A DNA stretch of 56,160 bases from a candidate division WOR-3 bacterium (GTDB lineage Bacteria; Hydrothermota; Hydrothermia; B15-G9; WFZT01): NCBI GenBank assembly GCA_027053075.1, contig JALUEE010000017.1, positions 1 to 56,160 of the forward strand, written 5' to 3'. A program made the position numbers and the translations under genes. Below the pieces are notes generated by a model. The model had not been told where the DNA came from. It saw nothing but the letters and a program-made list of their open reading frames with translations, and searched no databases. Positions 7,634-42,194 of this stretch are shown here, in pieces; within the stretch, counting starts at the first letter, position 1; each line of letters begins with the position of its first letter.

Positions 7634-7735
7634 ATTTCACAGGATTTCCACACGCGATAAGTCAGAGTACCAAGAGGACATTTCCAATTTCTCAACAGCC
7701 TATTACTACAACTTCAAGTTTATTTTTAAAAGACT
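7633..7735 (+). other. oriC: Replication origin oriC (unwinding region)
   Basis: DnaA-box-like AATTTCACA 7633, ATTTCCACA 7644 and TTCTCAACA 7689, followed by GCC, DnaA-trios TATTACTACAAC and an AT-rich tract; lies between dnaA and dnaN. Confidence 0.8.
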
Positions 7736-7753
7736 ATTGTGGAGGAATTTGAT

Positions 7754-8848
7754 ATGAAATTTGTCGTGGACAAAATGCTTTTTGAGAGAGCTTTGACAGA
7801 AGTCGCCAAAGCATTACCTCTCAGAACCACACTGCCAATTCTCAATAACATCCTTTTTGAGGTAAAAGACGGCACACTCTATCTCTCTGCCACGAATCTT
7901 GATTTCTCAATCAGAAGCTGGCTTCCCGTATTTGATGCAGAGGATGGTGCTTTTACCCTTCCCGGTAAGCTTATTTTGAATATGGTTCAAACCTTACCAC
8001 CGATGACGATCACTTTCGAGCACACCTCGGGTGCGACGAGAATGAGCACGGAAAAGGGTGTGTTTACCCTCGCCGGACTGGACCCCGAAGATTTCCCTAC
8101 GTTTAAGACCTTTGAAGGTGATGATGGCATAACTCTTCCAACTGAAGCTTTGATCCGCGGAAGTAACTATGTTTCTTTCTGCGCCGCAAGAGAGGATGCA
8201 AGAGCTTTCCTTACAGGTATACTGCTCGACTTGAGGGAAAATGAAGTTCGGCTTGTTGCAACTGACTCTCACAAACTCGGTCTCTGGAAGAAGTCCATTG
8301 ATCTCAATATTCAGACCCAGGCTATAGTCCCAAGGCATACCTTTGAATACCTGAAATCCAAAGACGAAGAGACAGCAAATATCAGATTTTCAAAGGACTC
8401 AATGGGCCTATTTTTCAAAGATTCCTTTTTGATTACGAGACAGATTGAGGGCCCATATCCTCCTTATGATGACATTATTCCCGGAGAATCTGAAAATGTG
8501 GCAGTTTTGCCGAGAGATGAATTCCTGAGCACCCTGAAAAGACTGTCTCTTTTTACCTCAGGCCCAACGTATCTTTTGAATATTTATTTCTCCCCTCAGG
8601 GTCTGAGGATGAAAGCTTCTTCACCGGATGTCGGTGAGGGTGAAGAAACTGTACCTGCAGAATTTACCGGTGAGCCTATGGAGCTTGCCTTCAACGTGCA
8701 GTATCTTCTTGAAATTATAAGAAAGTTGGATTCAGAGCAGGTCAAGATAAGTATCTACAACGCTTCAACGGCCATAAAGATTGAGCCAGTGGGCTTTGAA
8801 GAGGGAGAGGAGTTGCTCTATCTCCTGATGCCCATAAAGCTTGATTGA
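7754..8848 (+). CDS. dnaN: DNA polymerase III beta sliding clamp
   Basis: TTLPILNNIL, LSATNLD, VATDSHKL, IEGPYPPY, AFNVQYL, LLMPIK; follows dnaA; GGAGG RBS before ATG 7754. Confidence 0.97.
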   Translation: MKFVVDKMLFERALTEVAKALPLRTTLPILNNILFEVKDGTLYLSATNLDFSIRSWLPVFDAEDGAFTLPGKLILNMVQTLPPMTITFEHTSGATRMSTEKGVFTLAGLDPEDFPTFKTFEGDDGITLPTEALIRGSNYVSFCAAREDARAFLTGILLDLRENEVRLVATDSHKLGLWKKSIDLNIQTQAIVPRHTFEYLKSKDEETANIRFSKDSMGLFFKDSFLITRQIEGPYPPYDDIIPGESENVAVLPRDEFLSTLKRLSLFTSGPTYLLNIYFSPQGLRMKASSPDVGEGEETVPAEFTGEPMELAFNVQYLLEIIRKLDSEQVKISIYNASTAIKIEPVGFEEGEELLYLLMPIKLD

Positions 8849-11859: not shown

Positions 11860-11932
11860 GCCACCGTAGCTCAGTCGGCAGAGCAGCGGTTTCGTAAACC
11901 GCAGGTCGGCGGTTCAAGTCCGCCCGGTGGCT
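11860..11932 (+). tRNA. tRNA-Thr(CGT), CCA not encoded
   Basis: Acceptor GCCACCG/CGGTGGC; D arm GCTC..GAGC; anticodon stem GCGGT/ACCGC with loop TTCGTAA; T-loop TTCAAGT. Confidence 0.96.
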
Positions 11933-11949
11933 CTCAAAAGGAGCTCAAA

Positions 11950-13614: not shown

Positions 13615-14861
13615 AAAAAGTGCTCATGATCTTATACTATTTCCCACCCATTGGGCTTGCCGGGTCTGTCAGGGTGGTGAAATTCATCAAATATCTGCGT
13701 TTTTACGGCTGGGATTCAGTGGTGCTTACCTCGCGAGGTGTGAAGCACACCTTTGAAGATCAGGGGCTTGCAGATGATTTACCGAAAAATTTGAAAGTCT
13801 TCAGAGCTCTTTCCATTGAGCACGACAGTATTTTACCCCTTCTGGGCCTCCATCGCTCCACGGTGGTTTCAAACGAAGAGGGCAGGAGAAAGCTCGCGAG
13901 ATTGGAGAACTTCTTCATGATACCAGATTCCAAGGCCCTCTGGTTTTATCCTGCCGTTTTAAAGGCTATAAAAATAGTGAAAAATGAGGGGATAGATGTC
14001 ATTTTTTCCACATCTCCACCCCTAACAGCCCATATGATTGCGATCGCTGCCGGACGGCTCACCGGAAAGCCTGTGGTGCTCGACTATCGTGACGCATGGT
14101 ATGAAAATCCTTTCGGTATTTTCCCTACCACCATTCACCAGAAATTGCTAAAGGGACTCGAAAAACTTCTTGTCACCAGAGCCGATTTTATCATAGGTGT
14201 AAATCGTGCAATTGTTGATGGTAGACGGGCGATTGGGGCAAAGAGGAGCGCAGTGATTCCCCACGGTTTTGACCCTGAGGAGTTTCCTGGCGTAAAAGAT
14301 TTTCCTGTTTCTGATAAACTGATTTTTGCCTATGCAGGAAGTATTACCTATATAACCAACCCCGAGCCTTTGTTTGAGGCCTTTAGCACCCTTGCTAAGG
14401 AGAATTCATCATTGAAAATAGAGGTGAGGGTTTATAGTAATCCCCCGGAAGTCTATCGAAAGAAGTTCAAAGCCCCCTTATTCAGGTGGGAAGGGTTTGT
14501 TCCGAGAAAAGAAATTCCAGAGAGGCTCGCTTCTGCGCATGTATTACCTGCGACCATTGACAAAAGAGCCCGATATCCCTACATTTCTACCTCAAAAATC
14601 TACGATTACATAGGTGCAGGAAGGCCGATCTTGGGGGTTGTACCCCGAGGAACAGATGCCTGGAGAGAGATTGAAGGGCTTGGCAATTCATTTTTGGTTG
14701 AGCCTGACGAACCACGAGAGATTGTAAAGAAGATTTTAGAGATTTACAGGCTCTGGAAATCCGGAGGATTAAAATTGCTCAAAGAGGAAAAAAGAAAACT
14801 GTTTGACAGAAAAAGGATTACAGCGCAACTTGCAGAAATCTTAAACGAGGTGATAGGATGA
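13611..14861 (+). CDS. Glycosyltransferase family 4
   Basis: KVLMILYYFPP, STSPP, DYRDAW, IPHGFD, SKIYDYIGAGRPIL. Confidence 0.9.
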   Translation: MKKVLMILYYFPPIGLAGSVRVVKFIKYLRFYGWDSVVLTSRGVKHTFEDQGLADDLPKNLKVFRALSIEHDSILPLLGLHRSTVVSNEEGRRKLARLENFFMIPDSKALWFYPAVLKAIKIVKNEGIDVIFSTSPPLTAHMIAIAAGRLTGKPVVLDYRDAWYENPFGIFPTTIHQKLLKGLEKLLVTRADFIIGVNRAIVDGRRAIGAKRSAVIPHGFDPEEFPGVKDFPVSDKLIFAYAGSITYITNPEPLFEAFSTLAKENSSLKIEVRVYSNPPEVYRKKFKAPLFRWEGFVPRKEIPERLASAHVLPATIDKRARYPYISTSKIYDYIGAGRPILGVVPRGTDAWREIEGLGNSFLVEPDEPREIVKKILEIYRLWKSGGLKLLKEEKRKLFDRKRITAQLAEILNEVIG

Positions 14862-16174
14862 AGGTCATAGTGATTGGGGCTGGGCTTGCTGGTTCTGAAG
14901 CGGCATATCAACTGGCAAAAAGAGGTGTAGAGGTTGAGCTCTACGAGATGCGGCCCATAAAGTTTACACCTGCTCACAAAACCGACCGGTTTGCCGAGCT
15001 TGTTTGCAGTAATTCCCTGAAATCAAAGGATATTTACAATGCTCATGGACTTCTGAAGGCTGAGCTCAAGAGGCTTGATTCTCTGATAATGAAAGCCGCA
15101 GAGTACGCGGAGCTTCCCGGTGGTAAGGCCCTTGTGGTGGACCGCGAAAAATTTTCAGATTTTATCACTGAAACCCTGAAAAAGTTCCCCAATGTGAAGG
15201 TAATCCACGAGGAAATTACGAAGATTCCGGAAGATGAAATAGTTATTGTGGCCACAGGCCCACTCACGTCAGAGGCTCTTGCAGAGAATTTGAGAAATCT
15301 ACTGGGACTTGAATATCTTTCGTTTTTTGATGCCCTTTCTCCCATTGTTGATGCGGAGAGTCTTGATTATTCAAAACTTTATTTCAAAGATCGGCACGGA
15401 TGGGATGATTCTTCGTATTTAAATGCCCCGATGAATGAGGAGGAGTACTACAGGTTTTATGAGGCCCTGATCAACGCAGAGGTTTTCATGGGCCATGATT
15501 TCGAGGAGAAGGAAAAGGCCCGCTATTTTGAGGGTTGTCTGCCCATTGAGGAGATGGCAAGGCGCGGGCCTGAGACGCTGAGGTATGGACCTTTGAGGGC
15601 CTCAGGACTGCCAGACCCCAAAACCGGAAAGGAGCCCTTTGCTGTGGTTCAGCTCAGGCCTGAGAATCTCGAGCGCACAGCTTATTCCCTTGTGGGATTC
15701 CAGACACAGCTGAAGATTCCTGAGCAGAGAAGGGTTTTCAGGATGATTCCCGGGCTTGAGAATGCCCGATTTTTAAGGTACGGAGCAGTTCACAGAAACA
15801 CTTTCATAAAGGCACCAGCCGTGATGGAGCCCACTTTGCAGGTGAGGAAGAAGCCCAATATCTTTATTGCCGGTCAGATTGTTGGCACCGAGGGATATGT
15901 GGAGGCCGCAATGGGAGGACTTGTTGCAGGTATAAACGCGTATCTCCTTGCCACAGGCAGAGAGCCTTTAGTTTTTCCAGTGCACACAATGATTGGTGCG
16001 CTCCTCGACTATATAGCTCATTCAGACCCCAAACATTTCCAGCCTATGAACGCTAACATCGGGCTATTCAAAGATATTCCACCTCATGTCAGAAAAAAGC
16101 ACCGAAGGGAGTTTATTGTCAGGAGGGCACGGGAGACGCTGGAAGAATGGATAAAACGCTCGAAGATTTTCTAA
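14858..16174 (+). CDS. trmFO: Methylenetetrahydrofolate-tRNA-(uracil-54)-methyltransferase
   Basis: GAGLAGSEAA, AELVCSNS, YFEGCLPIE, VGFQT, AGQIVGTEGY, FQPMNAN. Confidence 0.97.
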   Translation: MKVIVIGAGLAGSEAAYQLAKRGVEVELYEMRPIKFTPAHKTDRFAELVCSNSLKSKDIYNAHGLLKAELKRLDSLIMKAAEYAELPGGKALVVDREKFSDFITETLKKFPNVKVIHEEITKIPEDEIVIVATGPLTSEALAENLRNLLGLEYLSFFDALSPIVDAESLDYSKLYFKDRHGWDDSSYLNAPMNEEEYYRFYEALINAEVFMGHDFEEKEKARYFEGCLPIEEMARRGPETLRYGPLRASGLPDPKTGKEPFAVVQLRPENLERTAYSLVGFQTQLKIPEQRRVFRMIPGLENARFLRYGAVHRNTFIKAPAVMEPTLQVRKKPNIFIAGQIVGTEGYVEAAMGGLVAGINAYLLATGREPLVFPVHTMIGALLDYIAHSDPKHFQPMNANIGLFKDIPPHVRKKHRREFIVRRARETLEEWIKRSKIF

Positions 16175-17082
16175 ACTATCTCATTTCTGTTAAAAACCTT
16201 TCCCGGAATACGGTTGAGGCTTACAGAAGGGACATTGAGTCCCTTTTTGAATACATGGAGGACAGGTATTCTGAGCGGGACCCCACAAAATTTACAAGGG
16301 TTCAGCTTAAGAATTATTTTCGCGACCTATTCTCGCACGGTTATTCGCGTAGAAGTGTCAGGAGAAAGCATTCTGCCACAAGAAGATTTTACAGATTTTT
16401 GCAGATCAACGGGCTTGTTAAGTCCAACCCGGTAACGAAAATCCTCAATATCAAGCTCGATAAACCTCTCCCGGATGTTTTAAGTGAAGAAAAGCTCAAC
16501 AGCATGCTTGAGGGCTGGAAGCCCGATAGTGTGTTTGATATCAGAAACAGAGCGATTATTGAGCTACTTTACTCCACCGGGATTCGAGTCTCTGAGCTTG
16601 TGGGGATTTCCATGGGTGATGTGGATTTCAAAAGAAGGGAAATCCGGGTGCTTGGCAAGGGCAACAAGGAAAGGATTGTGCCAGTGGGTGCTCCAGCTTA
16701 TGAGGCATTGTTGCAGTATTTACAGGTGAGGGAGAAGCTGAATCCGCGCTCTGATGCCCTATTTGTGAGTAAAAGCGGAAAGCCTCTCACAAGGGATATG
16801 GTATGGAGAATCGTCAATCAGGTGTTCAAGAAACTTTCTGCCATTTATGGAGTTCATCCCCATACACTTAGGCATTCATTTGCCACCCACATGCTCTCAG
16901 GTGGTGCAGATCTCAGGACCATTCAGGAGTTACTTGGCCACGAGAGCATTTCCACGACGGAAATTTACATAAATCTCACTCTGCCTAAGATCAAAAAGAT
17001 TTATGATGAAACCCATCCACGTAGGTTAGGGGATCAGGATGGCAATCCAGTCGAAGAAGACCACCACGACAAGGGCAGGTAG
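16147..17082 (+). CDS. xerC: Tyrosine recombinase XerC/XerD
   Basis: LYSTGIRVSEL, GKGNKER, HPHTLRHSFATH, QELLGH, TEIY; conserved trmFO-xerC synteny. Confidence 0.88.
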   Translation: MDKTLEDFLNYLISVKNLSRNTVEAYRRDIESLFEYMEDRYSERDPTKFTRVQLKNYFRDLFSHGYSRRSVRRKHSATRRFYRFLQINGLVKSNPVTKILNIKLDKPLPDVLSEEKLNSMLEGWKPDSVFDIRNRAIIELLYSTGIRVSELVGISMGDVDFKRREIRVLGKGNKERIVPVGAPAYEALLQYLQVREKLNPRSDALFVSKSGKPLTRDMVWRIVNQVFKKLSAIYGVHPHTLRHSFATHMLSGGADLRTIQELLGHESISTTEIYINLTLPKIKKIYDETHPRRLGDQDGNPVEEDHHDKGR

Positions 17083-21754: not shown

Positions 21755-21882
21755 GATATTTTCGAGGAATCTATGTTTAAATTGAAAAAGATATAAAATC
21801 CTATACTCCCACAAAAATCCAGCGGGCAACTTTGTATAATCTGATGTATAATTTCAAAAACTTTCCCGGAGGTCATTGGATT

Positions 21883-23940
21883 ATGAGGAAGTTCCTTATC
21901 GTAACTCTACTTGTTTTCTCTCAACTAACAGCACACAAGGTGGAGCTATTTGATGGTAGAGTTATCAAAACTCATAAGCTTGAGCTGAAGAATGGATTTT
22001 ACATCCTTGATGACACGGTAGTGAGCAAGTTGGATGTGAAAAAGGTCATCTTTTCAGGTGGTCCGAGCGCTTACCTGCCAGTTCGATACAAGCTGGAAAA
22101 TGTAGACAGTGTCCTTGCAAAGGCCAAAAGAGCGCGGGAACTCTATCCAGATGCCAGCGGAATTGTTCTACTTGATCAGGGATTTTACGTTTTGGAGATG
22201 GATTCAACTCGGTACAACCGATATCACTTCCAGGGCCTGATTCTCAAGGATGAGGCACGGAGCTGGGCAAATGTCAGGATTTATGTCGATGAAGATATGA
22301 TGAAAGCGCGGGTGCTCGCTGCAAGGTGCATTAAGCCAGATGGCAGGGTGATCTACCTCAATCCCAAAGACGTCAAGATCACCAAACCTAAATCCGGACT
22401 GGTTTTCTTCGGTAAGGGGAAGGTGATGAGCTTTACCATCCCTGGTGTCGAAGTCGGGGATATCGTTGAATACGTCTATGAATACAACATTTTCAATCCC
22501 TGGGATAAACATGTATTTTCTGAAAGATGGTTCTTTGGTGGAGACAAGCCCGTCTATCACTCAGAAGTTACATTCAAACTGCCAAAAACTGAATTTTTCA
22601 AATACTTGATCAGAAATACAGACCCCAAAAATGTTAAATATGAGAAATCATCTGTTGGACCCTTCAATCTGTACAAATTCTCCATGGACCAGGTTGACCC
22701 CTACCTCACTGAGCCACAGATGCCACCAGTTTCTGATGTGATTCCGGAGATTGCTATAACCAACCAGAAATCCTGGGACTATCTCTACACGTGGTATGCG
22801 AAATTCCAGAAAAAGAGAATGGTTATCACCCCGGAAATTCAGAGCCTCGCGGATAGCATCGTTAAAGGAGCCACAAGTCTTGATGATTCTATTGCAAGAA
22901 TCTACTACTGGGTCCAGCAGAACATTCGCTATATCTCCATCAAAGGAGGTGCATCCTCCGGAGTGTCCGGTCATCCGGCCACAGAAACCCTTCACAAGGG
23001 CTATGGAGACTGTACGGACAAATCCATTCTGTTTTCCACATTGCTCCGGGCAATTGGTGTGATGGGGTACCCGGTTTATATTGAGACAAACGACGAGGGC
23101 ACATTTTTGAAAGATATACCATCGTTTCAGGGAAACCACGCAATTACTGAGATTATCACGAGGGATGGAAGAGATTTCTTCTTAGATGCAACAGGTTCAA
23201 CCAGCCGATACCCCTATTTCTGGTCAGCAGACCATGGTGTCTGGGCACTCAACGCACAACTTCGAAAGATTTCATTTATCAAGGTCCCACCACCGGAAGA
23301 CAACTGGAGGCAGTACACGTATAAATTAACCATAAAACCCGATGGAACCACGCGGGTTGAATTTACAGGCAGGTACACAGGAGATATTGAGGCCGGGATT
23401 CGCTGGTACTGGCAGCATGTTAAAGAAAGCGAGAGAAAGAACCGCATGGAGCAGATGATTCAGGCAACTGCACCGGGTGCAAGGCTCGTTTCATACGAAC
23501 TCGGGCCGCTTTACGACCTCTCAAAGCAGTTCTACCTCAAAATCACATTCGACATTCCGGGATACCTGAAGAGCATCGGTGACCTGAGACTTCTTGAGCT
23601 CCCTGATGTTAAAAATCGCTACAGATTCCCTGAAATCTCGGTTAAAAATCGGCACTATGACATTGTTTATAGAACCTCTTACAAAGTTTCACACGACTTT
23701 TACGTCAAATTCCAGGGCATGAAATTAAACTACCTTCCGGATTCGATTAGCATCAAGGACAGGCATTTCACCTACGTTTCTTACTTCAAAAAGACAAAGG
23801 GAAACGAATTTGAATACCACGATGTTTTCCGAAGATGGGACAGGATTATTCCAGTGAGTGACTATCAGTCATACAGAGAGCATCTTTTAGAGCTTCTACA
23901 TCATCTTCGTAAACCCGTAATTTTTGAGGGAGGTAAGTAA
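21883..23940 (+). CDS. DUF3857 + transglutaminase-like domain protein (predicted active)
   Basis: Signal peptide; PGVEVGDIVEY; WVQQNIRY; GDCTDKS (Cys), NHAI (His), LDAT (Asp). Confidence 0.87.
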   Translation: MRKFLIVTLLVFSQLTAHKVELFDGRVIKTHKLELKNGFYILDDTVVSKLDVKKVIFSGGPSAYLPVRYKLENVDSVLAKAKRARELYPDASGIVLLDQGFYVLEMDSTRYNRYHFQGLILKDEARSWANVRIYVDEDMMKARVLAARCIKPDGRVIYLNPKDVKITKPKSGLVFFGKGKVMSFTIPGVEVGDIVEYVYEYNIFNPWDKHVFSERWFFGGDKPVYHSEVTFKLPKTEFFKYLIRNTDPKNVKYEKSSVGPFNLYKFSMDQVDPYLTEPQMPPVSDVIPEIAITNQKSWDYLYTWYAKFQKKRMVITPEIQSLADSIVKGATSLDDSIARIYYWVQQNIRYISIKGGASSGVSGHPATETLHKGYGDCTDKSILFSTLLRAIGVMGYPVYIETNDEGTFLKDIPSFQGNHAITEIITRDGRDFFLDATGSTSRYPYFWSADHGVWALNAQLRKISFIKVPPPEDNWRQYTYKLTIKPDGTTRVEFTGRYTGDIEAGIRWYWQHVKESERKNRMEQMIQATAPGARLVSYELGPLYDLSKQFYLKITFDIPGYLKSIGDLRLLELPDVKNRYRFPEISVKNRHYDIVYRTSYKVSHDFYVKFQGMKLNYLPDSISIKDRHFTYVSYFKKTKGNEFEYHDVFRRWDRIIPVSDYQSYREHLLELLHHLRKPVIFEGGK

Positions 23941-23941
23941 A

Positions 23942-25969
23942 ATGAGAAAATTCCTCGCACTTTTAATAGTTTTGCCACTTTTTGGCATGAGTAAGACTCC
24001 CAAAATTCTGACACGAGATATCGTTTATCTCAAAAATGGTGAAGAAATAATGGGCTCCGTGGTCAAGATTACCGGTGATTCACTTCTAATTCTAACAGGC
24101 CACGGGAATATTAAGCTTGCACGTGGGGCAGTCTTGAGCATCGAGTCCTCAAAGAGACGTCCCGGTGATATGTGGGAGAAGGTATCGGACATAAAAGATA
24201 CGCTCCTCTTAAGGGCACTCAAAATCAATGTGGACAGCATTTTCCCCAGCGCAGGGTATGTGAATATCTTTGTCAGAAAAAGCTTCAAATTAAATAACGG
24301 AAACTACGAATACACGGAGAGGAAAATTATAAAAATCCTCAAGGAACGCGGGAAGCGCGCTGCAAACAGATTTTTTAGATACCACCACAGATACGAAAAG
24401 GGGGAAATCGTATTTGCGAGGACTGTCACAAAAGATGGTAGAGTGGTTTCTATTCTTGATAATGCCATCGAAGATGCATCGGTCTTTTCAAACTATCCCG
24501 ATTATGACGACCTGCACCGCATAAAATTTGCCATTCCCGAGGGTGAGCCAGGGAATATCCTGGACTACGAAATAAAAATCACCGGTAAGAGTTCGGGGAA
24601 ACATCCTGCTTTGAGACGCATTCTGATGGGTGACAATGATCCAACTTACGAAGAAATCGTCTCAATAAGTGGCCCAAATCTTATCATCAAGACCGAAAAT
24701 GCCGAAAATCTAAAGGCCGATACCTCGCAGAGTGGAGAAGTGGTATTCACCCTCAGGAATCATCCGGGATATATTCGGGAACCCCATATTCCACCGCTTC
24801 ACTACATTTTGCCTGCGATCACAGTGGCAGAGAGAGCAGGGCTCGACTATTACAGGGCATATCTTGACACTTTGCTTGCCAATTTCGATGCTGAAAGGCT
24901 CATTGACAGTCTTGCTTCAAGGGCTCTAACCCTCGAAGACACAGTTTTTGCCCTCTACAGATTTGTTGCCCAGAGCATAAACCGGGTGCCGGCAGACGGA
25001 AATTCATTCAGCATGTTTCCAAAGGCCCCGGGAAAAGTGATTAAAAACTCAATGGGCAGCGAGGTTGACAAAGCCTTTCTCCTTTATGCCATTCTAAAAA
25101 AGGACGGGCTTTCCCCTGAGCTTATTCTTACCACATCAAAGGACCTGTGGAATACATACCCGGATATTCAGAACATTTCTCAATTCTCGGGCATCATCGT
25201 TAAGCTGGATAGTGTTTATCTCGACCCTGTAAACGACCGTATGCCTCTTGGATACGTGAGACCAGAGTACCAGGGTACAAGAGGGGTCACCCTTGATGGC
25301 ACGTCAGTTGAGATTCCATTCATCCCCTATGAAAGAGAGGGTGAGACCAATTTTATGAATATCACCCTGACCAACACCGGAGACCTGCTCGTTTCCGATA
25401 AGTATCTCTACAGGGGAGAGGATGGGGTGATGGTAAGAAGCCTCAAACAGTACAGAAAAGTGGAGCTTGAGAAACTGCTTGAGCAGAGTGTCAACTGGGC
25501 TCCTGGCACCGTCCTTGACTCCTTTAGTCTATCCGACCTGCAGGACCTTCGAATTCCGCCACGCATTTCGCTCTATTACCACATCCCCGAGTATGCCATT
25601 GTTGCCAATGACCTGATACTCCTCAAGATGCCTGATCTAACCGAATACACTGCCTCGGATGTAGGTGCTACCGAAAGGTTCAACCCACTCTACTTCTCGA
25701 GAAATTACAGGAGAATCAAGGACATCGTAATAAATCTACCACCTGGCTACATGGTGAGGTACATTCCCGAAGGATTTAAGGGCAGGGTCAAATTCATGAG
25801 TTTCAATTCGCTTCTTTTCAAAGATTCTGGAAAGGTGCATTACAGCGACGAAACTATAAGATTTGGTGGTATCTACGAGAAAAGTCTTTACCCGGATTAC
25901 AGAAAAATCGTGGAAGGTATGGCTCGCCTGAGGGACAACTATATTGTGCTGCAGCGGATGAAACGGTAA
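23942..25969 (+). CDS. DUF3857 + transglutaminase-like paralogue (predicted inactive)
   Basis: Signal peptide; same architecture; GSEVDKA lacks Cys; QFSGII lacks His; YLDP retained. Confidence 0.8.
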   Translation: MRKFLALLIVLPLFGMSKTPKILTRDIVYLKNGEEIMGSVVKITGDSLLILTGHGNIKLARGAVLSIESSKRRPGDMWEKVSDIKDTLLLRALKINVDSIFPSAGYVNIFVRKSFKLNNGNYEYTERKIIKILKERGKRAANRFFRYHHRYEKGEIVFARTVTKDGRVVSILDNAIEDASVFSNYPDYDDLHRIKFAIPEGEPGNILDYEIKITGKSSGKHPALRRILMGDNDPTYEEIVSISGPNLIIKTENAENLKADTSQSGEVVFTLRNHPGYIREPHIPPLHYILPAITVAERAGLDYYRAYLDTLLANFDAERLIDSLASRALTLEDTVFALYRFVAQSINRVPADGNSFSMFPKAPGKVIKNSMGSEVDKAFLLYAILKKDGLSPELILTTSKDLWNTYPDIQNISQFSGIIVKLDSVYLDPVNDRMPLGYVRPEYQGTRGVTLDGTSVEIPFIPYEREGETNFMNITLTNTGDLLVSDKYLYRGEDGVMVRSLKQYRKVELEKLLEQSVNWAPGTVLDSFSLSDLQDLRIPPRISLYYHIPEYAIVANDLILLKMPDLTEYTASDVGATERFNPLYFSRNYRRIKDIVINLPPGYMVRYIPEGFKGRVKFMSFNSLLFKDSGKVHYSDETIRFGGIYEKSLYPDYRKIVEGMARLRDNYIVLQRMKR

Positions 25970-25977
25970 ATTAATAC

Positions 25978-28662
25978 ATGATTCGTCGGGAATTTGGAAA
26001 ATATAAGGTCGAATCCTGGATAGGAGGGGGACAGTTTGCAGACGTTTTCCTCGTTCTGGACACCATAACAGAAAAAAGATACGCCCTAAAAGTTTCAAGA
26101 ACCCGTGAAAAGGACATTGAGATGCTCAAGCGCGAGGCCCAGCTCCTCGCGTCATTGGAGCATCCAAACATTGTAAGATTCTATACCGCAGAGCTGATCG
26201 AGGGGAAGCTTGCCATTGTAATGGAATTCGTGGATGGATACTCACTCAGAAAACTTATCGAAGAAGAGGCTCCACTTGATGAAACACGGGCAATTAGCAT
26301 TATTACTGACGTTCTTGAGGCCCTCTCCTATGCCCATTCAAGGGGTGTGCTGCACAGGGATATAAAACCCGAAAACATAATGCTAACCCGGGACGGGGTT
26401 GTGAAGCTCACCGACTTTGGGCTTGCGGTAATGCTTTCAAGCAGCTTGAGTTTTTCCATGGCAGGAACACCGATCTACATGGCACCTGAGGCATGGAGCG
26501 GGAAAATGCGGAAAGAGTCAGACATCTGGTCAGTTGGAACTGTTCTCTACGAATTATTAGCAGGATACCCACCATTTTTTGCAGAGACCATAGAGGAATT
26601 ACGAAACCAGGTTTTTAAGGGCAAACTCAAGAAACCACCAAGAATTTCCCCTGAGCTTTTTGAAATCATTAAAAAGGCTTTAAGAAAAGCACCACAGGAG
26701 CGTTTCAAAACCGCTTCGGACATGAGAAAGGCCCTCGTGGATTACCTAAGACGTGGGGGTGGGGATATTTCGCTTAAATCCATTCAGGTCAGAAGGAAGG
26801 TCTCCCCACTTTTAGAGGGATTGACCGAGGAGCAGAGAGAAGCGGTTTTGACCGGTGATGGCTACTTCCTTTTACTCGGAGGAGCGGGAACAGGTAAAAC
26901 CACCACACTCGTGCATAGAATAGCCTATTTGATCCACGAAAAAGGGGTGCCGGCAGACAGAATCCTTGCCGTGACATTTACAGGTAAGGCAGCAGGAGAG
27001 ATGAAAGAGAGGGTTGAAAAGCTCATCGGTGAGGGAAACACAAAGAATCTCTGGACAGGCACCTTTCATTACTTCGGCAGAAAAATCGTTTCATACGGAA
27101 TCGAGCGCCTTGGCTATCCTGAGGAGTTTCAGCTAATCGGCAGAGAAAACCAGGAAGAGTTATTTGAAAAAGCCACAGGCATCAGGGCCAAGGAAAAGAT
27201 TCGCGCTATCCTGAAGGAAATTTCCCGATATAAGTCAAACCTCGTCTCTGCCGACTATCTCCTTGAGAATGTAAAAAGCCGCTGGAAGAAAGAGGTTGCC
27301 GAGGCTTACGCAAAATACCAGAGAGCTCTGTTTTTTGAAGGGCTACTCGACCTCGATGACCTTATTTTCCTCGCCGTGCGACTTCTGCGGCAGTACGATG
27401 ACATAAAAGAACTATTCAGCGAAAAATTCAAATACCTCCTCGTGGATGAATTTCAGGACATCAATAGAGGCCAGTTTGTAATGCTTCAGATTCTCTCATC
27501 AAGGCATAAAAACCTTTTCGTAACCGGAGACGATGATCAGTCCATCTACGGTTTCAGAGGGGCATCGAGTAAATTTCTCACCCAGTTTAGAAAATTCTAT
27601 CCTGACCACAAAGAAATCAGGCTTACGCAGAACTTCCGCTCGCCTTCAGAGATTATTACAGTGGCAAACACCCTGATTTCCCACAACGAATCAAGGATAG
27701 ACAAACTGATAATCCCCCTTCGTGAGAGCAACGAAGAAGTTGTAAAATTCTACGCAGCCCGAAATGAAACTGACGAGGCTGAATTTGTGGCAGAAAAGAT
27801 CTTAGAGGAGCGGGAGCGTGGAAGGAGCTTTGATGACATAGCGGTTCTCATCCGCCTTAATTCCCTCTCAAGGCCCTTTGAAGAGGTTTTTAGCCGTAAA
27901 AAAATTCCATTTAACGTGCTCGGCTTTGGGGGATTCTACGAGCGAGAGGAGGTAAAGGCTTCCATAGGATTCTTGCGGTTTATCATGGGAACACGCAAGG
28001 CATCTGACCTTCGCCTGATGCTGACCCGATTCCTGAGATGGCATCCAAAAGACGCAAAGGCAGCCACGAAGTATTTTGACAAAACCGGGAAACCCACATT
28101 TTCAAAAAAATTCAGCGATGAGATGAAAAAGGCACTGGAGAATTTCTGGAAGTACCTGAACACATTTGACCCGGAGCAACTCAAGATTCGCTCGCCACAG
28201 GAGTTACTTGAGGAGCTTTACGATGTTACCGGCTACATGCGTTACCTTGAGGAAAAAGATACTCCATCCCGACTGATGGAGAAGGATAATATTGACGAGC
28301 TTTTAGGCATCGCAGGGATGTTTAAAAGAGGGGAGCTCAGGGAATTTCTCTCACATGTATCCATGATGCAGCATCTTGGTGAGGAGTTTCGCTCCCTCGG
28401 TGGTGTCAGAATCATGACCGTCCACCAGGCAAAGGGACTGGAATTTCCTGTTGTGTTTGTGGTTGGTCTTGTCGAGGGTGTTTTTCCATTATTTAAGTCC
28501 GTGGCGGAGAAGGAGAGTCTTGAGGAGGAGCGCCGACTCTGCTACGTTGCCATCACAAGGGCATCGGAAACCCTTTATTTGACATATCCAAAGAAGCGTT
28601 TTAAATATTACCAAGAACCCTCCCGATTCCTTTACGAAATGTACGTCAGGGAGGAAAGGTAG
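25978..28662 (+). CDS. Fusion of Hanks-type Ser/Thr kinase and UvrD/PcrA (SF1A) helicase
   Basis: Kinase: GGGQFADV, ALK, HRDIKPEN, DFG, APE. Helicase: GGAGTGKT, TFTGKAA, DEFQD, GDDDQSIYGFRGA, QNFRS, TVHQAKGLEF, EERRLCYVAITRA. Confidence 0.92.
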   Translation: MIRREFGKYKVESWIGGGQFADVFLVLDTITEKRYALKVSRTREKDIEMLKREAQLLASLEHPNIVRFYTAELIEGKLAIVMEFVDGYSLRKLIEEEAPLDETRAISIITDVLEALSYAHSRGVLHRDIKPENIMLTRDGVVKLTDFGLAVMLSSSLSFSMAGTPIYMAPEAWSGKMRKESDIWSVGTVLYELLAGYPPFFAETIEELRNQVFKGKLKKPPRISPELFEIIKKALRKAPQERFKTASDMRKALVDYLRRGGGDISLKSIQVRRKVSPLLEGLTEEQREAVLTGDGYFLLLGGAGTGKTTTLVHRIAYLIHEKGVPADRILAVTFTGKAAGEMKERVEKLIGEGNTKNLWTGTFHYFGRKIVSYGIERLGYPEEFQLIGRENQEELFEKATGIRAKEKIRAILKEISRYKSNLVSADYLLENVKSRWKKEVAEAYAKYQRALFFEGLLDLDDLIFLAVRLLRQYDDIKELFSEKFKYLLVDEFQDINRGQFVMLQILSSRHKNLFVTGDDDQSIYGFRGASSKFLTQFRKFYPDHKEIRLTQNFRSPSEIITVANTLISHNESRIDKLIIPLRESNEEVVKFYAARNETDEAEFVAEKILEERERGRSFDDIAVLIRLNSLSRPFEEVFSRKKIPFNVLGFGGFYEREEVKASIGFLRFIMGTRKASDLRLMLTRFLRWHPKDAKAATKYFDKTGKPTFSKKFSDEMKKALENFWKYLNTFDPEQLKIRSPQELLEELYDVTGYMRYLEEKDTPSRLMEKDNIDELLGIAGMFKRGELREFLSHVSMMQHLGEEFRSLGGVRIMTVHQAKGLEFPVVFVVGLVEGVFPLFKSVAEKESLEEERRLCYVAITRASETLYLTYPKKRFKYYQEPSRFLYEMYVREER

Positions 28663-28678: not shown

Positions 28679-30067
28679 ATGAAAGAGGTTCGCGTGAGAT
28701 TCGCCCCTTCACCAACCGGATACCTTCATGTTGGAGGTGCAAGAACGGCACTCTACAACTGGCTTTTTGCCCGAAACAGGGGTGGCAAATTTCTTTTAAG
28801 AATAGAAAACACCGACGTAAAGCGATCGAGCAAGGAGATGGAAGAGTATATTAAAGAGGCCATGCTCTGGCTTGGATTAAACTGGGACGAAGATATCGTA
28901 TATCAGCTTGACAGGCTTGAAATTTACAGAAAGTATGCAAATGAGCTGATTGAAAAGGGACTTGCATATTATTGCTACACTCCACCTGAGGAGCTTAATA
29001 AAGAGGGTGGTGGTGTGGAGTGTTTTGAGGTAAATCCTGACGAATACAGGGATAAGCCCCTCGCCATTAAATTCAGGGTTCCCAACGAGGGGACAACTGA
29101 GTTTGACGATATCATTAGAGGCCACATAACTTTTCAGAATAAAGACCACGGGGACTTTGTGATAGTTCGCTCAGACGGCATTCCCACGTACAATTTTGCC
29201 GTGGTAGTGGACGACCACTACATGGGAATAACGCACGTCATCCGGGGTGAAGACCACATCCCGAATACGCCAAAGCAGATACTGGTTTATCGGGCATTTG
29301 GCTGGGATGTTCCAGAATTTGCGCATCTGCCCATGATTTTAGGGCCTGACAAGAAACGCCTTTCTAAAAGGCATGGAGCAACATCGGTTCTGGAATATCG
29401 GGACATCGGAATTCTGCCCGAGGCACTTTTCAACTTTCTTGCCCTGCTTGGATGGTCACCTGGTGATAACCGTGAGATAGTGCCAAAAGAGGAAATGATA
29501 AAGCTCTTTGACCTGAAGCGGGTTGGTAAGAGGGCAGCGGTATTTGATCTCGATAAACTCTACTGGATCAACTCCGAGTACATCAGGATGAAGAGTGATG
29601 AGGAGCTTTATGAGCTCGCACTGCCATTTGTAGAAAAGGCAGGACTGGTTAAAACAGAAGCAGACCGTGAAAAGTTCAGGAAGGTCGTGCCGCTCCTAAA
29701 GGAGCGTGTAAAACTCCTTCGTGATTTTGTGGACCTTTCGGAATACTTTTTCCGCGATGTTGAGTCCTACGACGAGAAGGGTGTGAAGAAGCACTTTAAG
29801 GCTGGGGTTGAAGAGAGATTAAAGCTTCTTGTGGAGAGGCTGGAAAAACTTGATAGGTTTGATGAAAAGAGCATCGAGGAAGTCGTAAGGTCACTTGCTG
29901 ATGAGCTCGGGGTGAGTGCTGCGAAGATAATTCATCCCACGCGTCTTGCAGTTACGGGACGTACATTTGGCCCTGGCCTTTTTGAGCTCATGGCCGTCCT
30001 CGGAAAGGACGAGTGCATCAAACGCCTCAAACACGCCATCAAATGGCTTGAGGAAAGAAAATCCTGA
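28679..30067 (+). CDS. gltX: Glutamate-tRNA ligase
   Basis: RFAPSPTGYLHVGG, VIRGEDH, KRLSKR. Confidence 0.96.
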   Translation: MKEVRVRFAPSPTGYLHVGGARTALYNWLFARNRGGKFLLRIENTDVKRSSKEMEEYIKEAMLWLGLNWDEDIVYQLDRLEIYRKYANELIEKGLAYYCYTPPEELNKEGGGVECFEVNPDEYRDKPLAIKFRVPNEGTTEFDDIIRGHITFQNKDHGDFVIVRSDGIPTYNFAVVVDDHYMGITHVIRGEDHIPNTPKQILVYRAFGWDVPEFAHLPMILGPDKKRLSKRHGATSVLEYRDIGILPEALFNFLALLGWSPGDNREIVPKEEMIKLFDLKRVGKRAAVFDLDKLYWINSEYIRMKSDEELYELALPFVEKAGLVKTEADREKFRKVVPLLKERVKLLRDFVDLSEYFFRDVESYDEKGVKKHFKAGVEERLKLLVERLEKLDRFDEKSIEEVVRSLADELGVSAAKIIHPTRLAVTGRTFGPGLFELMAVLGKDECIKRLKHAIKWLEERKS

Positions 30068-38328: not shown

Positions 38329-39998
38329 AAGTTAATTCGGATGATGCGATAGAGCACTGTTACAAGAACACTGAAGGCAAAAGTGAAGGTGAACTCGTGC
38401 GCTGCTTGGAAAAGGAGGTAAAGAGTGCGGAGCGATCTGGAGATAGAGAGAAGGAACTCGGAATACTCCTGAAAATAGCTAATATATTGATTCAACGGGG
38501 TGAAATTAGGAAATCAGTGAGTTACATAGAGACTGTTCGAAACAGAATTGAGAACTTAAAAGATGGCGAGTATAAAGCGAGAATGTGCTTGCGGTTAGGT
38601 AGATTATATCAAGAAATTGAACGGTACGATAAAGCGCTCTTCTTTTACAGAGAAGCTGAGAACCTGCTAACTCCCTATGACTCCAAGAACATTGAAGCCA
38701 ATAAGTTACTAATAAATATAAAAAATAACAAAGCTGTGATATTTCTATTTCAAGGAAACGTTGAAGAAGCCATAAGGCAGTTAGAGGGGGTGGTTTTAAT
38801 TTATGAAAACTCTACATTTAAAACCGTTAAAGAAACCAAAATATATATATCCGCATTGGCAAACCTCGGCAATATCTATCACGAACTAAACAACTCCAAC
38901 AAAGCCTTATATTACTTCGAGAAAGCAAAAGAAAAACTTTCAGATTTAGTAATCTCTAACAAGGACGTAATTGGTAAAAAGGTCGCCTTTGGGGTCTATA
39001 TAAACCTATCCCACCTTTACGTTCACGAAAGAAAATTGGAATCTGCCAAAAGGCTGTTAAAATTGGCGAGAAAGAATTTCCCACCTAATTACAGATTATC
39101 TAAAATTCATTATCTAATCGTACTATCAAAATTCTGGATGGAAAAAGGTAATTATGATCATGCAGTTAAAATTCTACAAAAAGCTCAAAAGCTCGGGAAT
39201 GAAACCAAACACGAATACGTAGAAGGTCTCATTCTAAATGAATTAGGTATATTTTATAAAACCATCGGGGATTATCAAAATGCTCTAATCAATCTCATTA
39301 AAGCGAGAAATTTCTTCCAGAAAATAAAATTCTATAAAGCACGCGTAAAAAATACAATTGACGAGATCGAAGGTAATTTCATAAAAATTGCTTCGCAGTG
39401 GGGGGCAAAGGTTGAGCTTAAGGATCCGTATACGCTCGGACATTCTGCGAGGACCACCTACTATGCATTTCTTATCGGTAAAAGACTACTGGATGATGAG
39501 CTCTCACTTAAGGGGCTTTTAATAGGAGGCTTCCTCCACGACATAGGCAAACTCAAAATCGACGATAAAATCCTTTTGAAACGCGGAAAATTGACTCCGG
39601 AAGAAAGAAAAGAGATCGAAAAACACCCTGTTTACGCAATTGAGCAGCTTAAAAATATCGAATTCCCTTGGAAAAATGTGAAGGACTGCATTCTGTACCA
39701 TCATGAAAAGTATAATGGGACAGGATATCCTGAAGGTTTAAAAGGAGAGCAAATACCATTGTGTGCAAGAATTATAGCTGTGGCCGACGTTTTCGATGCC
39801 CTCACCACTGATAGACCTTACCGTTCAGCACTTTCCTGGCAGGAGGCTCTGAGTTTCATTCAGGAAAACAAAGGAAAATATTTTGACCCAGTTGTAGTAG
39901 ATACCTTTGCAGAAATCCTTGAGAAACTTGATAAAAGCCTCATAAGCACCCAACACACAAAACACATGGTTGAAGAGCTATGGAGATTTTTCGCTTAA
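38325..39998 (+). CDS. TPR-domain HD-GYP cyclic-dinucleotide phosphodiesterase
   Basis: N-terminal TPRs; KDPYTLGHS, LHDIGK, KHP, HHEKYNGTGYP, ADVFDALTTDRPYR; ATGA overlap with the TPR gene. Confidence 0.9.
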   Translation: MKVNSDDAIEHCYKNTEGKSEGELVRCLEKEVKSAERSGDREKELGILLKIANILIQRGEIRKSVSYIETVRNRIENLKDGEYKARMCLRLGRLYQEIERYDKALFFYREAENLLTPYDSKNIEANKLLINIKNNKAVIFLFQGNVEEAIRQLEGVVLIYENSTFKTVKETKIYISALANLGNIYHELNNSNKALYYFEKAKEKLSDLVISNKDVIGKKVAFGVYINLSHLYVHERKLESAKRLLKLARKNFPPNYRLSKIHYLIVLSKFWMEKGNYDHAVKILQKAQKLGNETKHEYVEGLILNELGIFYKTIGDYQNALINLIKARNFFQKIKFYKARVKNTIDEIEGNFIKIASQWGAKVELKDPYTLGHSARTTYYAFLIGKRLLDDELSLKGLLIGGFLHDIGKLKIDDKILLKRGKLTPEERKEIEKHPVYAIEQLKNIEFPWKNVKDCILYHHEKYNGTGYPEGLKGEQIPLCARIIAVADVFDALTTDRPYRSALSWQEALSFIQENKGKYFDPVVVDTFAEILEKLDKSLISTQHTKHMVEELWRFFA

Positions 39999-42098
39999 GT
40001 AAGAGAGAAGAGTATACCTCTTCATCGGTTTGACGTTCTTTACTGCTATTTGGATTGCCCTGGGGTGGGCGAAGAGGGTTAAAACCCTCTTCGCCCTTGT
40101 TATTGCTGTATAAAACCAATTCCTGTGTAAAAACACATAGTGTGAGAGACTCATCACCAGTAGAGCAACATCAAATTCTGACCCCTGAGCCTTATGGACT
40201 GTTAACGCATATGCATGATCTGTCTCATCCCTCAATTCCTCAAAGGTGTATTCTATAAATCTTTCGCCATCTCCGTCTTCAAATCTGACAATGGCCATCC
40301 CATTCTCTTTGTCTATGGAATAGATCTCACCAATTTCACCATTGAAAACCACTCTTTCATAGTCATTTACAATCTGTATAATGCGATCACCCTCACGAAA
40401 GACTCGCTCCCCAATTTGCACCTCTACTTTATCACTCGCTGGAGGATTCAAAAGCCCCTGGGCAATAAAGTTTAAATTCTTCGTTCCCAAAATACCCCGT
40501 CTCTGCGGGGTAATGAGCTGAATTTGATTACCAAAATAAACTATCGCCCTCTTCAGAGGCTCTACAAAATCCTCATTTTTCTCAAAATACTTCACAATAA
40601 AATCCTCATTGTTGACGATCTCGGGTAGTTTCCCTTCACGAATATTTCTCGCATTCAGTGCAATTGAAGAGCCTGGACCCTGACGATAGACATGTTTAAG
40701 AGTAACAGAAGGAAATTCCATATTAAGAAGGTCTGTCAGAAGATTCCCCGGTCCTATACTCGGTAGCTGGGCCGGGTCTCCAACAAGCACAACCCTCGCG
40801 TGGAAAGGAAGCGCACTTAGCAACCTGTAAAACAAAGGCATTGAAACCATCGAAACCTCGTCTACTAAAACCGCATCCACACTCAAAGGATTATCAGCGT
40901 TAAACTCATACCTCTCGCCATTAAATTTTAGAAGTCTATGAATGGTCTTTGCCTTGCGACCCGTGAGTTCATGCAACCTCTTCGCGGCCTTACCTGTTGG
41001 TGCACAAATTTCATATCTAAATCCAAGCTCATCCCATAAATCAAGAATGATTTTTGATAAAAGACTCTTACCTGTACCCGCATATCCCGTAATGAGAGAA
41101 AAGTTATAAAAGTAAGGCAGAATTGCCCCCTCAATCTGTTCCGTTGAGAGTGATACTCCGTATCTCTCCCTTGCCAGAGCTGCCACCTTTTCCCGCACTC
41201 TGGCCATATCGTCATCCGTCGGTGGCGATTCTGTTTCTTTAAACAATTCCAACCTCTGGAAAATATAATTTGCCATTGAATAGAAAGATTTAAGGGCGAT
41301 AATGTTGCCTTCCAGAAATATTTTTCCATTTTTTGCAAGCTCTGCGATAGCTCGGTCAACGAGTTCGTAATTCTCAATCTTCAAATTCCTCATTGATTCG
41401 AAAAAAGTATCCATTGGTAGGTACGTGTGACCACTTTCTGCTGCCTGCTCGAGCACGTATATCACTGCGGCCCTGATGCGTCTTGGATCTTCGGGCTTCA
41501 CTCCAATTTGCTGAGCAAGATTGTCTGCCTTTTTAAAACCTATACCCCAGATTTCCGTAAGAACGTATGGATTCTCCTCAAGAATCTCCTTTGTTTTATC
41601 TCCATACTCCTTATAAATCTTAAGGGCCATCTTTGGGGTTATTCCGAGGCCGGTGAGATATGAGAGGGCCCTTCCTGAAAATCTGTGAACTTCCCACGAG
41701 GATTTAATGAGATTCAGCGTCTTTTCACCTATACCCGGCACTTCTTTTAGCCTATCAGGATCATAGTCAAGAATCTCGATGAGTTTTTTTACCCCAAATT
41801 GCCTAACAAGCTGATTGGCCTTCTTAAACCCCAATCCTTTAATAAAGCCCGCAAGAAAATTGACAAAACCCGCCTCCGAATCTGGCATGGTTACTTCATA
41901 AGAGTTGGCAAAGAAATAAGGGCCGTATTTCCTGCTATTTTTCCATTCCCCTTTGAAGATATATTCAGTATCCAGGGCAACTTCATCAAAAAAACCAGCT
42001 ACTCTAACATACCCTTTGTTAGTCTTAACATCTAAAACTGTGTAACCATCGGGGGATTTGTAAATCACATAAACCACTTTGCCTCTTAACGCTTCCAT
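39978..42098 (-). CDS. recD2: ATP-dependent RecD2 (SF1B) DNA helicase
   Basis: HhH motifs, ENPYVL..GIGFKKAD, GYAGTGKS, APTGKAA, TIHRLL, DEVSM, GDPAQLPSIGPG, TVHKAQGSEF, YTAITRA. Confidence 0.93.
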   Translation of the reverse strand: MEALRGKVVYVIYKSPDGYTVLDVKTNKGYVRVAGFFDEVALDTEYIFKGEWKNSRKYGPYFFANSYEVTMPDSEAGFVNFLAGFIKGLGFKKANQLVRQFGVKKLIEILDYDPDRLKEVPGIGEKTLNLIKSSWEVHRFSGRALSYLTGLGITPKMALKIYKEYGDKTKEILEENPYVLTEIWGIGFKKADNLAQQIGVKPEDPRRIRAAVIYVLEQAAESGHTYLPMDTFFESMRNLKIENYELVDRAIAELAKNGKIFLEGNIIALKSFYSMANYIFQRLELFKETESPPTDDDMARVREKVAALARERYGVSLSTEQIEGAILPYFYNFSLITGYAGTGKSLLSKIILDLWDELGFRYEICAPTGKAAKRLHELTGRKAKTIHRLLKFNGERYEFNADNPLSVDAVLVDEVSMVSMPLFYRLLSALPFHARVVLVGDPAQLPSIGPGNLLTDLLNMEFPSVTLKHVYRQGPGSSIALNARNIREGKLPEIVNNEDFIVKYFEKNEDFVEPLKRAIVYFGNQIQLITPQRRGILGTKNLNFIAQGLLNPPASDKVEVQIGERVFREGDRIIQIVNDYERVVFNGEIGEIYSIDKENGMAIVRFEDGDGERFIEYTFEELRDETDHAYALTVHKAQGSEFDVALLVMSLSHYVFLHRNWFYTAITRAKRVLTLFAHPRAIQIAVKNVKPMKRYTLLSYLSEKSP

Positions 42099-42194
42099 CG
42101 GGTTCAAAAATACAGAATGCCAGAAAGAATGGCAACCCTCGACATATCAACGGCGATTGATTAATATTTTACCATTATCGCAAGGAGTAAAGAG

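Follow-up and report, generated by a model that had tools for sequence, protein, structure and literature searches.

A kinase–UvrD-like fusion of the WOR-3 phylum and its co-retained partner ARPP-1

YabT of Bacillus subtilis is anchored in the membrane and has no motor domain. This Hanks-type kinase depends on single-stranded DNA (ssDNA) and phosphorylates RecA (PMC4754617; this and the other papers cited here are drawn on in extract). CapK and CapS form a pair of kinase and substrate in which the kinase is activated by ssDNA arising from DNA damage (PMC13373217). Here we describe a gene that joins a Hanks-type kinase to a UvrD-like helicase motor in a single chain, located at positions 25978 to 28662 of a 56,160-nucleotide stretch of DNA (contig JALUEE010000017.1 of assembly GCA_027053075.1, from a candidate division WOR-3 bacterium; hereafter the window). 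Across the phylum this fusion and a second protein, ARPP-1 (PF20208), are kept and lost together, even when their genes are unlinked. Both halves of the fusion come from known superfamilies, and DNA-activated kinases are already a known kind; the architecture and its pairing with ARPP-1 were not found described in open-access papers and preprints (PMC, bioRxiv). We tentatively read the two proteins as a chromosomal DNA-lesion signalling pair, made up of a motor-borne kinase and ARPP-1, with a probability of about 0.45.

A kinase and a helicase motor in one chain

The fusion gene and its parts are as follows.

25978..28662 (+): kinase–UvrD-like fusion gene; open reading frame (ORF) of 894 amino acids (aa) with Pfam matches; AlphaFold2 (AF2) model with mean predicted local distance difference test (pLDDT) 87.5 and predicted template modelling score (pTM) 0.57
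26002..26715 (+): Hanks-type RD Ser/Thr kinase domain (aa 9–246; PF00069, E 3e-59)
26413..26490 (+): activation segment DFG...APE (aa 146–171) with conserved S160 and T164, from the alignment
26752..26814 (+): flexible linker (about aa 259–279), from the AF2 model and alignment
26821..27600 (+): 1A/1B part of the superfamily 1A (SF1A) motor (aa 282–541) with Q motif, Walker A/B, Ia, Ib and III (PF00580, E 2.5e-73; alignment to PcrA 1pjr)
27616..28593 (+): 2A/2B part of the SF1A motor (aa 547–872) with motifs IV, IVa, V and VI (PF13361, E 2.7e-57)
27943..28392 (+): diverged 2B subdomain (about aa 656–805) without the GIG duplex-binding motif, from the aligned column

The Pfam matches (Pkinase, UvrD-helicase and UvrD_C) bear out the sequence-only reading, which had seen a single ORF with an intact Hanks kinase and SF1A helicase motifs. 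All kinase motifs from the Gly loop to APE are present (G16/G18, K38, E53, HRDxKPEN, DFG and GTPxY..PE), as are those of the helicase (Q286, Walker A G301–T308, F334, H364, DEFQD, GDDDQSIYGFRG, R554, R626, HQAKGLEF and EERR..TR), and the catalytic positions in both halves show little or no variation among 63 aligned members of 32–84% identity. In the activation loop, position 160 is Ser or Thr in 59/63 members and T164 occurs in 63/63; from the alignment, both are likely autophosphorylation sites. The linker is poorly conserved in sequence and constant in length, with 37–45 aa from R242 to Q286 across the family. An AF2 model built on the 63-row alignment has low-order stretches at residues 150–160 (the activation loop), 263–273 (the linker) and 800–807, and predicts two well-folded modules joined by a flexible tether.

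The protein lacks a transmembrane segment, as had been claimed: its most hydrophobic 19-mer (Kyte–Doolittle 1.94, starting at aa 821) is the motif V region and forms a strand in the model. The fusion has neither a transmembrane helix nor extracellular PASTA repeats, and its NF033483 score of 226.6 bits against a cut-off of 450 sets it apart from the PknB/Stk1 receptor type. Because there is no transmembrane or extracellular sensor, the motor is the only sensor-like module of the protein. The modelled motor shares the 1A/1B/2A/2B fold and matches 1pjr, 2is4 and 4c2t, with PcrA 1pjr the closest by Foldseek (E 6e-47, template modelling score 0.78 on the target, 36% identity). By alignment it keeps F334, H364, Y524, F/W526, R527, R626 and H816, which we take to be the ssDNA-contacting sites of PcrA. 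From what is known of the family, the fused motor would bind ssDNA and translocate 3′–5′ at the expense of ATP.

The window comes from a metagenome assembly, where an assembly artefact or a lost stop might fuse two genes. A search for the architecture returned a conserved fused family: both domains stand in one chain in the first 69 of 120 listed homologues (33–100% identity), and in 118 of 120 listed homologues when the first 330 residues are the query. No two-gene split of kinase and helicase was found among relatives of the phylum, which are single fused ORFs. Twelve short frames occur among the kinase matches; the six that were fetched comprise three contig ends, two N gaps (G177, G111) and one single frameshift (G045), and the remaining six run past contig starts by their coordinates. 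In addition, a contig from public run X1, from which this DNA may derive, crosses the kinase–helicase junction at 26671–27413 with zero differences, and no indels are listed in 4/4 sequencing runs compared. The conserved fused family and the junction-spanning contig rule out an artefact, whose residual probability is vanishingly small.

The same genome encodes a separate PcrA of 692 aa (contig C75), which carries the RGIG motif and ends in a tail of about 60 aa. A further gene, on C94, has the size of AddA. Since this PcrA is present, the fused motor is a paralogue and not the PcrA of the cell. The GIG motif makes contact with duplex DNA when the monomer is autoinhibited (PMC13238157); at the aligned column it occurs in 0/74 fused motors, 29/30 WOR-3 PcrA and 14/26 other PcrA. 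A short 2B region, as previously noted, is a property of the family, in which the FYERxE-to-motif V span that holds 2B covers 121–176 aa (median 146.5 vs 173 in PcrA), whereas the present protein is only modestly short, with 161 aa against 176 in the PcrA of its own genome. The reported lack of a C-terminal Tudor-like domain stands, since the chain ends about 14 residues past the PSRF motif (family median tail 12, 53/60 scorable) and PF21196 gives no Pfam match; this profile misses the C75 PcrA tail too at E 0.001. All NCBIfam scores fall below the equivalog cut-offs (pcrA 517.6/911.2, uvrD 418.7/1144.45 and rep 426.1/951.45 bits). In a FastTree phylogeny of 148 motors, the 74 fused ones lie on one side of a branch with Shimodaira–Hasegawa-like support of 99, apart from WOR-3 PcrA, and the fused kinases likewise form their own clade (support 93); both trees are FastTree only, with long branches and no bootstrap, and they leave the donor unplaced. 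By these comparisons the fused motor has retained the ssDNA and ATP machinery and shed the duplex-contact motif and C-terminal tail of PcrA.

In three of five genomes tested (G093, G178 and G110) the fusion is the only PcrA-type gene found besides AddA, and it seems to be the sole PcrA-type gene in G092–G097 (genus g36 of family f19), G176–G178 (f31) and G110. No PcrA match at E 1e-40 was found in f18, f29 and most of f28; these families also lack the fusion, and the loss of PcrA is therefore not tied to it. A separate clade of UvrD-like proteins of ~960–1010 aa (L330–L333, in G022, G257, G254 and G252) occurs in families without the fusion.

Within the WOR-3 phylum, about 117 of 272 genomes (~43%), in 24/43 families, have one copy of the fusion each. 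The kinase query over these genomes left a gap between E 3e-66 and 1e-54, with 113 genomes above it plus one contig-cut copy; a full-length profile added G033, G076 and G105, and no further fusion stood among its listed matches. A hidden Markov model search of 1.84 billion 50%-representatives returned about 35 proteins spanning both domains among the best 150, and the family is therefore small. Most listed homologues come from WOR-3/Hydrothermota, with a few from Synergistota, Thermosulfidibacteraceae and 'bacterium JZ-2024 1' and one Pacearchaeota record. Trees of kinase, motor and ARPP for the 59 genomes with all three keep the families of the Genome Taxonomy Database together (21, 22 and 22 changes for 22 families, where the minimum is 21), so that vertical inheritance fits. 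The ratio pN/pS, quoted since dS is saturated for most pairs, is 0.015 for the fusion and 0.029 for gltX against the closest genome (G037), and 0.13–0.15 and 0.085–0.10, respectively, against four more distant members of the genus. These comparisons indicate a vertically inherited gene under purifying selection. The fused form was not found among plasmids (0/3594 matching records cover 80%), phages (best matches kinase only, 32–38%) or IMG/VR (one helicase-only locus).

Kinases of 340–400 aa in families without the fusion were considered as cut-down versions of it and set aside, as they lie outside the fused clade. Protein P0232 (963 aa, on one JGI contig) joins a different-looking kinase to a UvrD-like helicase with scores far below those of the fusion family, and may be either a fusion of separate origin or a chimera of the assembly.

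ARPP-1 as the co-retained partner

The neighbourhood of the fusion was sampled over ~6 kb on each side in 60 of 114 carriers, picked across families. An ARPP-1 ORF of 282–379 aa adjoins the fusion in 31/60 loci, spread over 11 families. It lies upstream of the fusion in 29 of these and downstream of it in 2, and in 9 the stop and start overlap. The orthologue of the present genome, of 292 aa, lies on another contig (C92:2645–3523, L268; PF20208, E 3e-67 over residues 3–289), and the sequence-only reading missed the conserved partner for that reason. The partner clade was delimited with a profile built from 24 copies that adjoin the fusion and from the copy of the present genome (E 1.3e-63 or better), its thresholds being set by eye at score gaps. 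A second, longer type of ARPP-1 (frames of ~320–400 aa; for example L238, L242 and L245) is found in many WOR-3 genomes, whether or not they carry the fusion.

A first pass over the 272 genomes found both genes in 109, the fusion only in 5, ARPP only in 4 and neither in 154. Follow-up of the nine discordant genomes recovered contig-cut or diverged copies in five, and the final table stands at 114 with both, 3 with the fusion only, 1 with ARPP only and 154 with neither. The three fusion-only genomes (G038, G029 and G226) are 93, 80 and 75% complete, and the ARPP of the single ARPP-only genome (G175) ends at a contig edge. Linkage does not account for all of this: of the 109 first-pass genomes with both genes, 66 have them within 4 kb and 43 have them apart. 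The best control is the class of the present bacterium: the two genes are apart in 37/37 genomes with both, yet neither is present in its 21 genomes that belong to f7, f8 and f9, although related genomes are not independent and this pattern may equal one to three loss events.

Structure prediction for residues 1–700 of the fusion with ARPP-1 gave a complex score of 0.53, where the best of three controls scored 0.00; at least 94% of contacts are shared between runs and the partner has pLDDT of at least 85. In calibration, the mark was reached by 116/157 solved complexes and 2/215 mismatches, and at scores of 0.60 or under by 18/157 solved complexes and by both passing mismatches. The prediction thus modestly raises the odds that ARPP-1 may bind the fusion directly, a pairing already likely from gene linkage. 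Tree distances of kinase, motor and ARPP are correlated (rho 0.59–0.82), and relative to PcrA the distance ratio is lowest in the kinase (1.03), the best conserved module, and rises to 1.43 in the motor and 1.73 in ARPP. In G105 (L315, G105:C35:8140–11554) all three have very long branches (1.6 for the kinase, 1.8 for the motor and 2.0 for ARPP-1), and may point to a joint acceleration.

Residues Q75 and C97 are invariant in 25 ARPP-1 sequences, the local copy also keeps E99, R102 and W103, and the pattern C.E..[RKV]W is present in 71/72 sequences. A structural model of ARPP-1 is confident (pLDDT 94, pTM 0.92). No clear PDB match, to SRAP structures or to others, was obtained for it: Foldseek returned none at E 0.001 and the best VIA Z score was 4.9, which does not imply a new fold. 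A search of the ESM Atlas returned only ARPP-1 clusters. ARPP systems were described in 2022 by Iyer, Burroughs, Anantharaman and Aravind, who report no relation to characterised domains and an absolutely conserved Cys and Gln, list contexts with ARG systems, HIRAN, WYL and an exported deacetylase, and propose SRAP-like cross-linking to sugars (PMC9503650). A kinase–UvrD context is absent from section 3.8 of the same paper, and 'UvrD' and 'kinase' have 0 matches in the part of its supplement that was searched.

SRAP itself occurs in 25/117 fusion carriers and 17/155 non-carriers (counted by hand), and this co-existence leaves unsupported the idea that ARPP-1 is a simple substitute for SRAP or displaces it. 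In the class of the present bacterium SRAP is confined to genus g10 (G054–G058, f7), which lacks the fusion and the partner ARPP. In f19 it occurs only in two genomes without fusion and ARPP (G101 and G102) and in 0/9 carriers; the pattern fails in f25–f27. Unlinked ARPP-1 genes adjoin nucleotide-messenger enzymes in three lineages (loci including L285–L324), with relA/spoT downstream in f1 and in G034 of f3, cdaA downstream in f4 and f5 (9 loci) and a GGDEF-AAA-TPR gene upstream in f11. This proximity may be chance.

Surroundings and readings of the pair

The following neighbours frame the fusion in the window.

21832..25969 (+): two DUF3857/transglutaminase-like genes upstream; local context, adjoining the fusion only in family f1
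28679..30067 (+): gltX downstream; local context, adjoining the fusion only in family f1

The fusion is separated from these genes by 8 nt upstream and 16 nt downstream. Its core-like composition, remarked on earlier, matches that of gltX (GC 0.466 and GC3 0.516, against 0.473 and 0.509), and the window, which includes dnaA, dnaN, murJ and lysS, is core chromosome. The position in a housekeeping operon, though real, is incidental: gltX and DUF3857 genes flank the fusion in 5/60 loci, all in the bacterium's own family f1, and were dropped as functional context. A promoter and terminator scan was at chance level (11 vs 12.9 expected). The dnaA and dnaN genes lie at 6281–8848, ~17 kb upstream, which probably places the fusion of this genome close to the replication origin; the f11 copies, too, stand a few genes from ORFs that resemble dnaN and dnaA by eye. 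Elsewhere the window holds a tRNA-Thr(cgt) at 11860–11933, upstream of a GidA-family (trmFO-like) gene followed by a XerC-like tyrosine recombinase (14858–17082, +), a RecD2-type SF1B helicase gene (39978–42107, −) and a low-GC stretch (0.29–0.30) with a KAP-family P-loop NTPase gene (53282–54982, −), possibly a small acquired or defence-related island.

As a DNA-lesion signalling pair, the two proteins would work as follows. The motor would load on ssDNA and bring the kinase there. Crowding or stalling of motors on the strand would then let the kinases activate one another through trans-autophosphorylation at S160/T164. ARPP-1 is predicted to be the bound partner or a substrate of the kinase; it would mark a sugar lesion (an abasic site or a blocked end) via its conserved Cys, or process it. 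A sharper version, in which a checkpoint-like kinase is carried along ssDNA by its own motor and triggered at a lesion covalently or tightly marked by ARPP-1, is somewhat doubtful. Kinase activation, lesion marking by ARPP-1 and the identity of the substrate are steps that we infer. A kinase coupled to DNA and putatively activated by it, as the sequence-only reading had proposed, remains the best reading.

Several observations weigh against lesion signalling. The genome, 95% complete, yielded no genes for FHA or PP2C proteins, the candidate readers and erasers of the phosphate. Lineages that carry the fusion and lineages that lack it both include LexA (163/272); it was not found in this genome and is present in 5/5 of its genus. 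As the distribution of LexA is unrelated to the fusion, a replacement of SOS/LexA by the fusion is unsupported. The linker has pLDDT <50, and the low pTM of the model leaves the packing of kinase on motor unfixed. No recurrent neighbour other than ARPP-1 emerged across the 60 loci, the co-existence with SRAP and the dependence among related genomes noted above count here as well, and ARPP was first described in predicted anti-phage or conflict systems (PMC9503650).

Some of the same facts would suit a dedicated repair or clearance machine, in which ARPP-1 caps a sugar lesion on ssDNA, the motor strips off the cap or processes the site, and the kinase is only a local regulator of the motor or of ARPP-1. 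UvrD-type monomers displace proteins from ssDNA (PMC13238157), and the strict co-retention, the predicted binding, the missing FHA and PP2C network and the correlated distances with long branches in G105 all fit. We consider this unlikely, as the kinase is the best conserved of the modules, the chemistry of ARPP is itself a prediction and SRAP co-exists in 25 genomes. Decidedly unlikely is a domesticated anti-phage or abortive-infection system whose motor senses intermediates of phage DNA and unleashes the kinase so as to halt the cell, with ARPP-1 as co-sensor or inhibitor. PADLOC matches each half (GajB at E 8e-105, MAD6 and PD-T4-6 kinases), ARPP has its conflict-system contexts, and the pair is absent from 19/43 families; the PADLOC matches are, however, single-domain and weaker than that to PcrA (TIGR01073, E 6e-155). 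Inheritance speaks against defence too, with one copy per genome, trees that keep families together and strong constraint relative to gltX against G037, as do the core-chromosomal window, the lack of a recurrent defence neighbour in the 60 loci and the absence of the fused form from the plasmid, phage and IMG/VR collections.

In PcrA, the C-terminal tail links to RNA polymerase. The fusion lacks this tail and keeps the ssDNA-contact residues, which makes it improbable that the motor tracks RNA, R-loops or stalled transcription, or that it is a scaffold which senses ATP and serves a metabolic or nucleotide-messenger signal involving ARPP-1. The diverged 2B and the messenger-enzyme neighbours of unlinked ARPP-1 would suit such roles, but the three neighbour types vary by lineage. 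The sequence-only reading had also offered an autoregulated repair helicase, that is, the ordinary PcrA/UvrD of the cell with an autoregulatory kinase. PcrA is indeed closest in both sequence and structure, and a few carriers have no other PcrA-type gene besides AddA. This idea is weakened to the point of being very improbable by the separate GIG-bearing PcrA that most carriers keep, this genome included, and by the fused motors forming a well-supported clade of their own without GIG; PcrA is also not found in some fusion-less families, and ARPP-1 would go unexplained.

Should the sharper version hold, with the kinase carried along ssDNA to lesions marked by ARPP-1, the pair would be a damage sensor that scans DNA, without a counterpart among described bacterial responses, and would give ARPP-1 its first functional handle. 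An old gene, the fusion is retained by some 43% of the genomes of a whole phylum. Widespread, with a predicted catalytic Cys and no solved fold, ARPP-1 gains a specific partner, which opens its function to tests on two soluble proteins of a hydrothermal-vent organism.

Comparison with described systems

All motor motifs and the four-subdomain fold are common to the fusion and PcrA, UvrD, Rep and Mycobacterium tuberculosis UvrD1 (PDB 1pjr, 2is1, 1uaa and 9dci). Unlike PcrA, UvrD and Rep, the fusion has an N-terminal kinase, a shortened 2B without GIG, no C-terminal tail and a tie to ARPP-1; it also falls below all NCBIfam cut-offs and co-exists with a true PcrA. Gabija GajB, MADS MAD6, BREX PglW and PD-T4-6 have domain-level homology to its halves. 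In contrast to MADS and BREX, the fusion scores far below the cut-offs (MAD6 180 vs 460; PglW 98.7 vs 990) and is vertical and single-copy, and no MADS or BREX system genes stand among the window ORFs scanned. No GajA OLD-family ATPase-nuclease lies beside the fusion, whose neighbours are DUF3857 and gltX, and no such recurrent cluster appeared in the 60-locus scan, in which only recurrent neighbour clusters were named. The best AAA_15 gene of the genome is at G000:C38:27542–28675 (L421), where a frame of 630 aa strongly matches AAA_15 (OLD/GajA-type ATPase).

Like the proteins of described ARPP systems, the partner of the fusion consists of a complete ARPP-1 domain that retains the conserved Cys (C97) and Gln (Q75); the pairing with a kinase–UvrD chain goes beyond the ARG, HIRAN, WYL and deacetylase contexts given in the extracts of PMC9503650. 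CapK and CapS share the two-gene logic of a kinase and a partner. They differ in kind, however: CapK belongs to the GHKL kinases and is located upstream of immune operons, while CapS is a repressor (PMC13373217). Neither has homology to the present pair, and no immune operon is adjacent to the fusion here. YabT is a Hanks kinase, as is the N-terminal half of the fusion, which is here proposed to respond to ssDNA. YabT and CapK are precedents for kinases activated by ssDNA, and neither possesses a motor. Unlike YabT, the fusion is soluble and carries an ATP-driven translocase. If the lesion-signalling reading is correct, the fusion would couple active scanning of DNA to phosphorylation, where YabT and CapK bind ssDNA passively.

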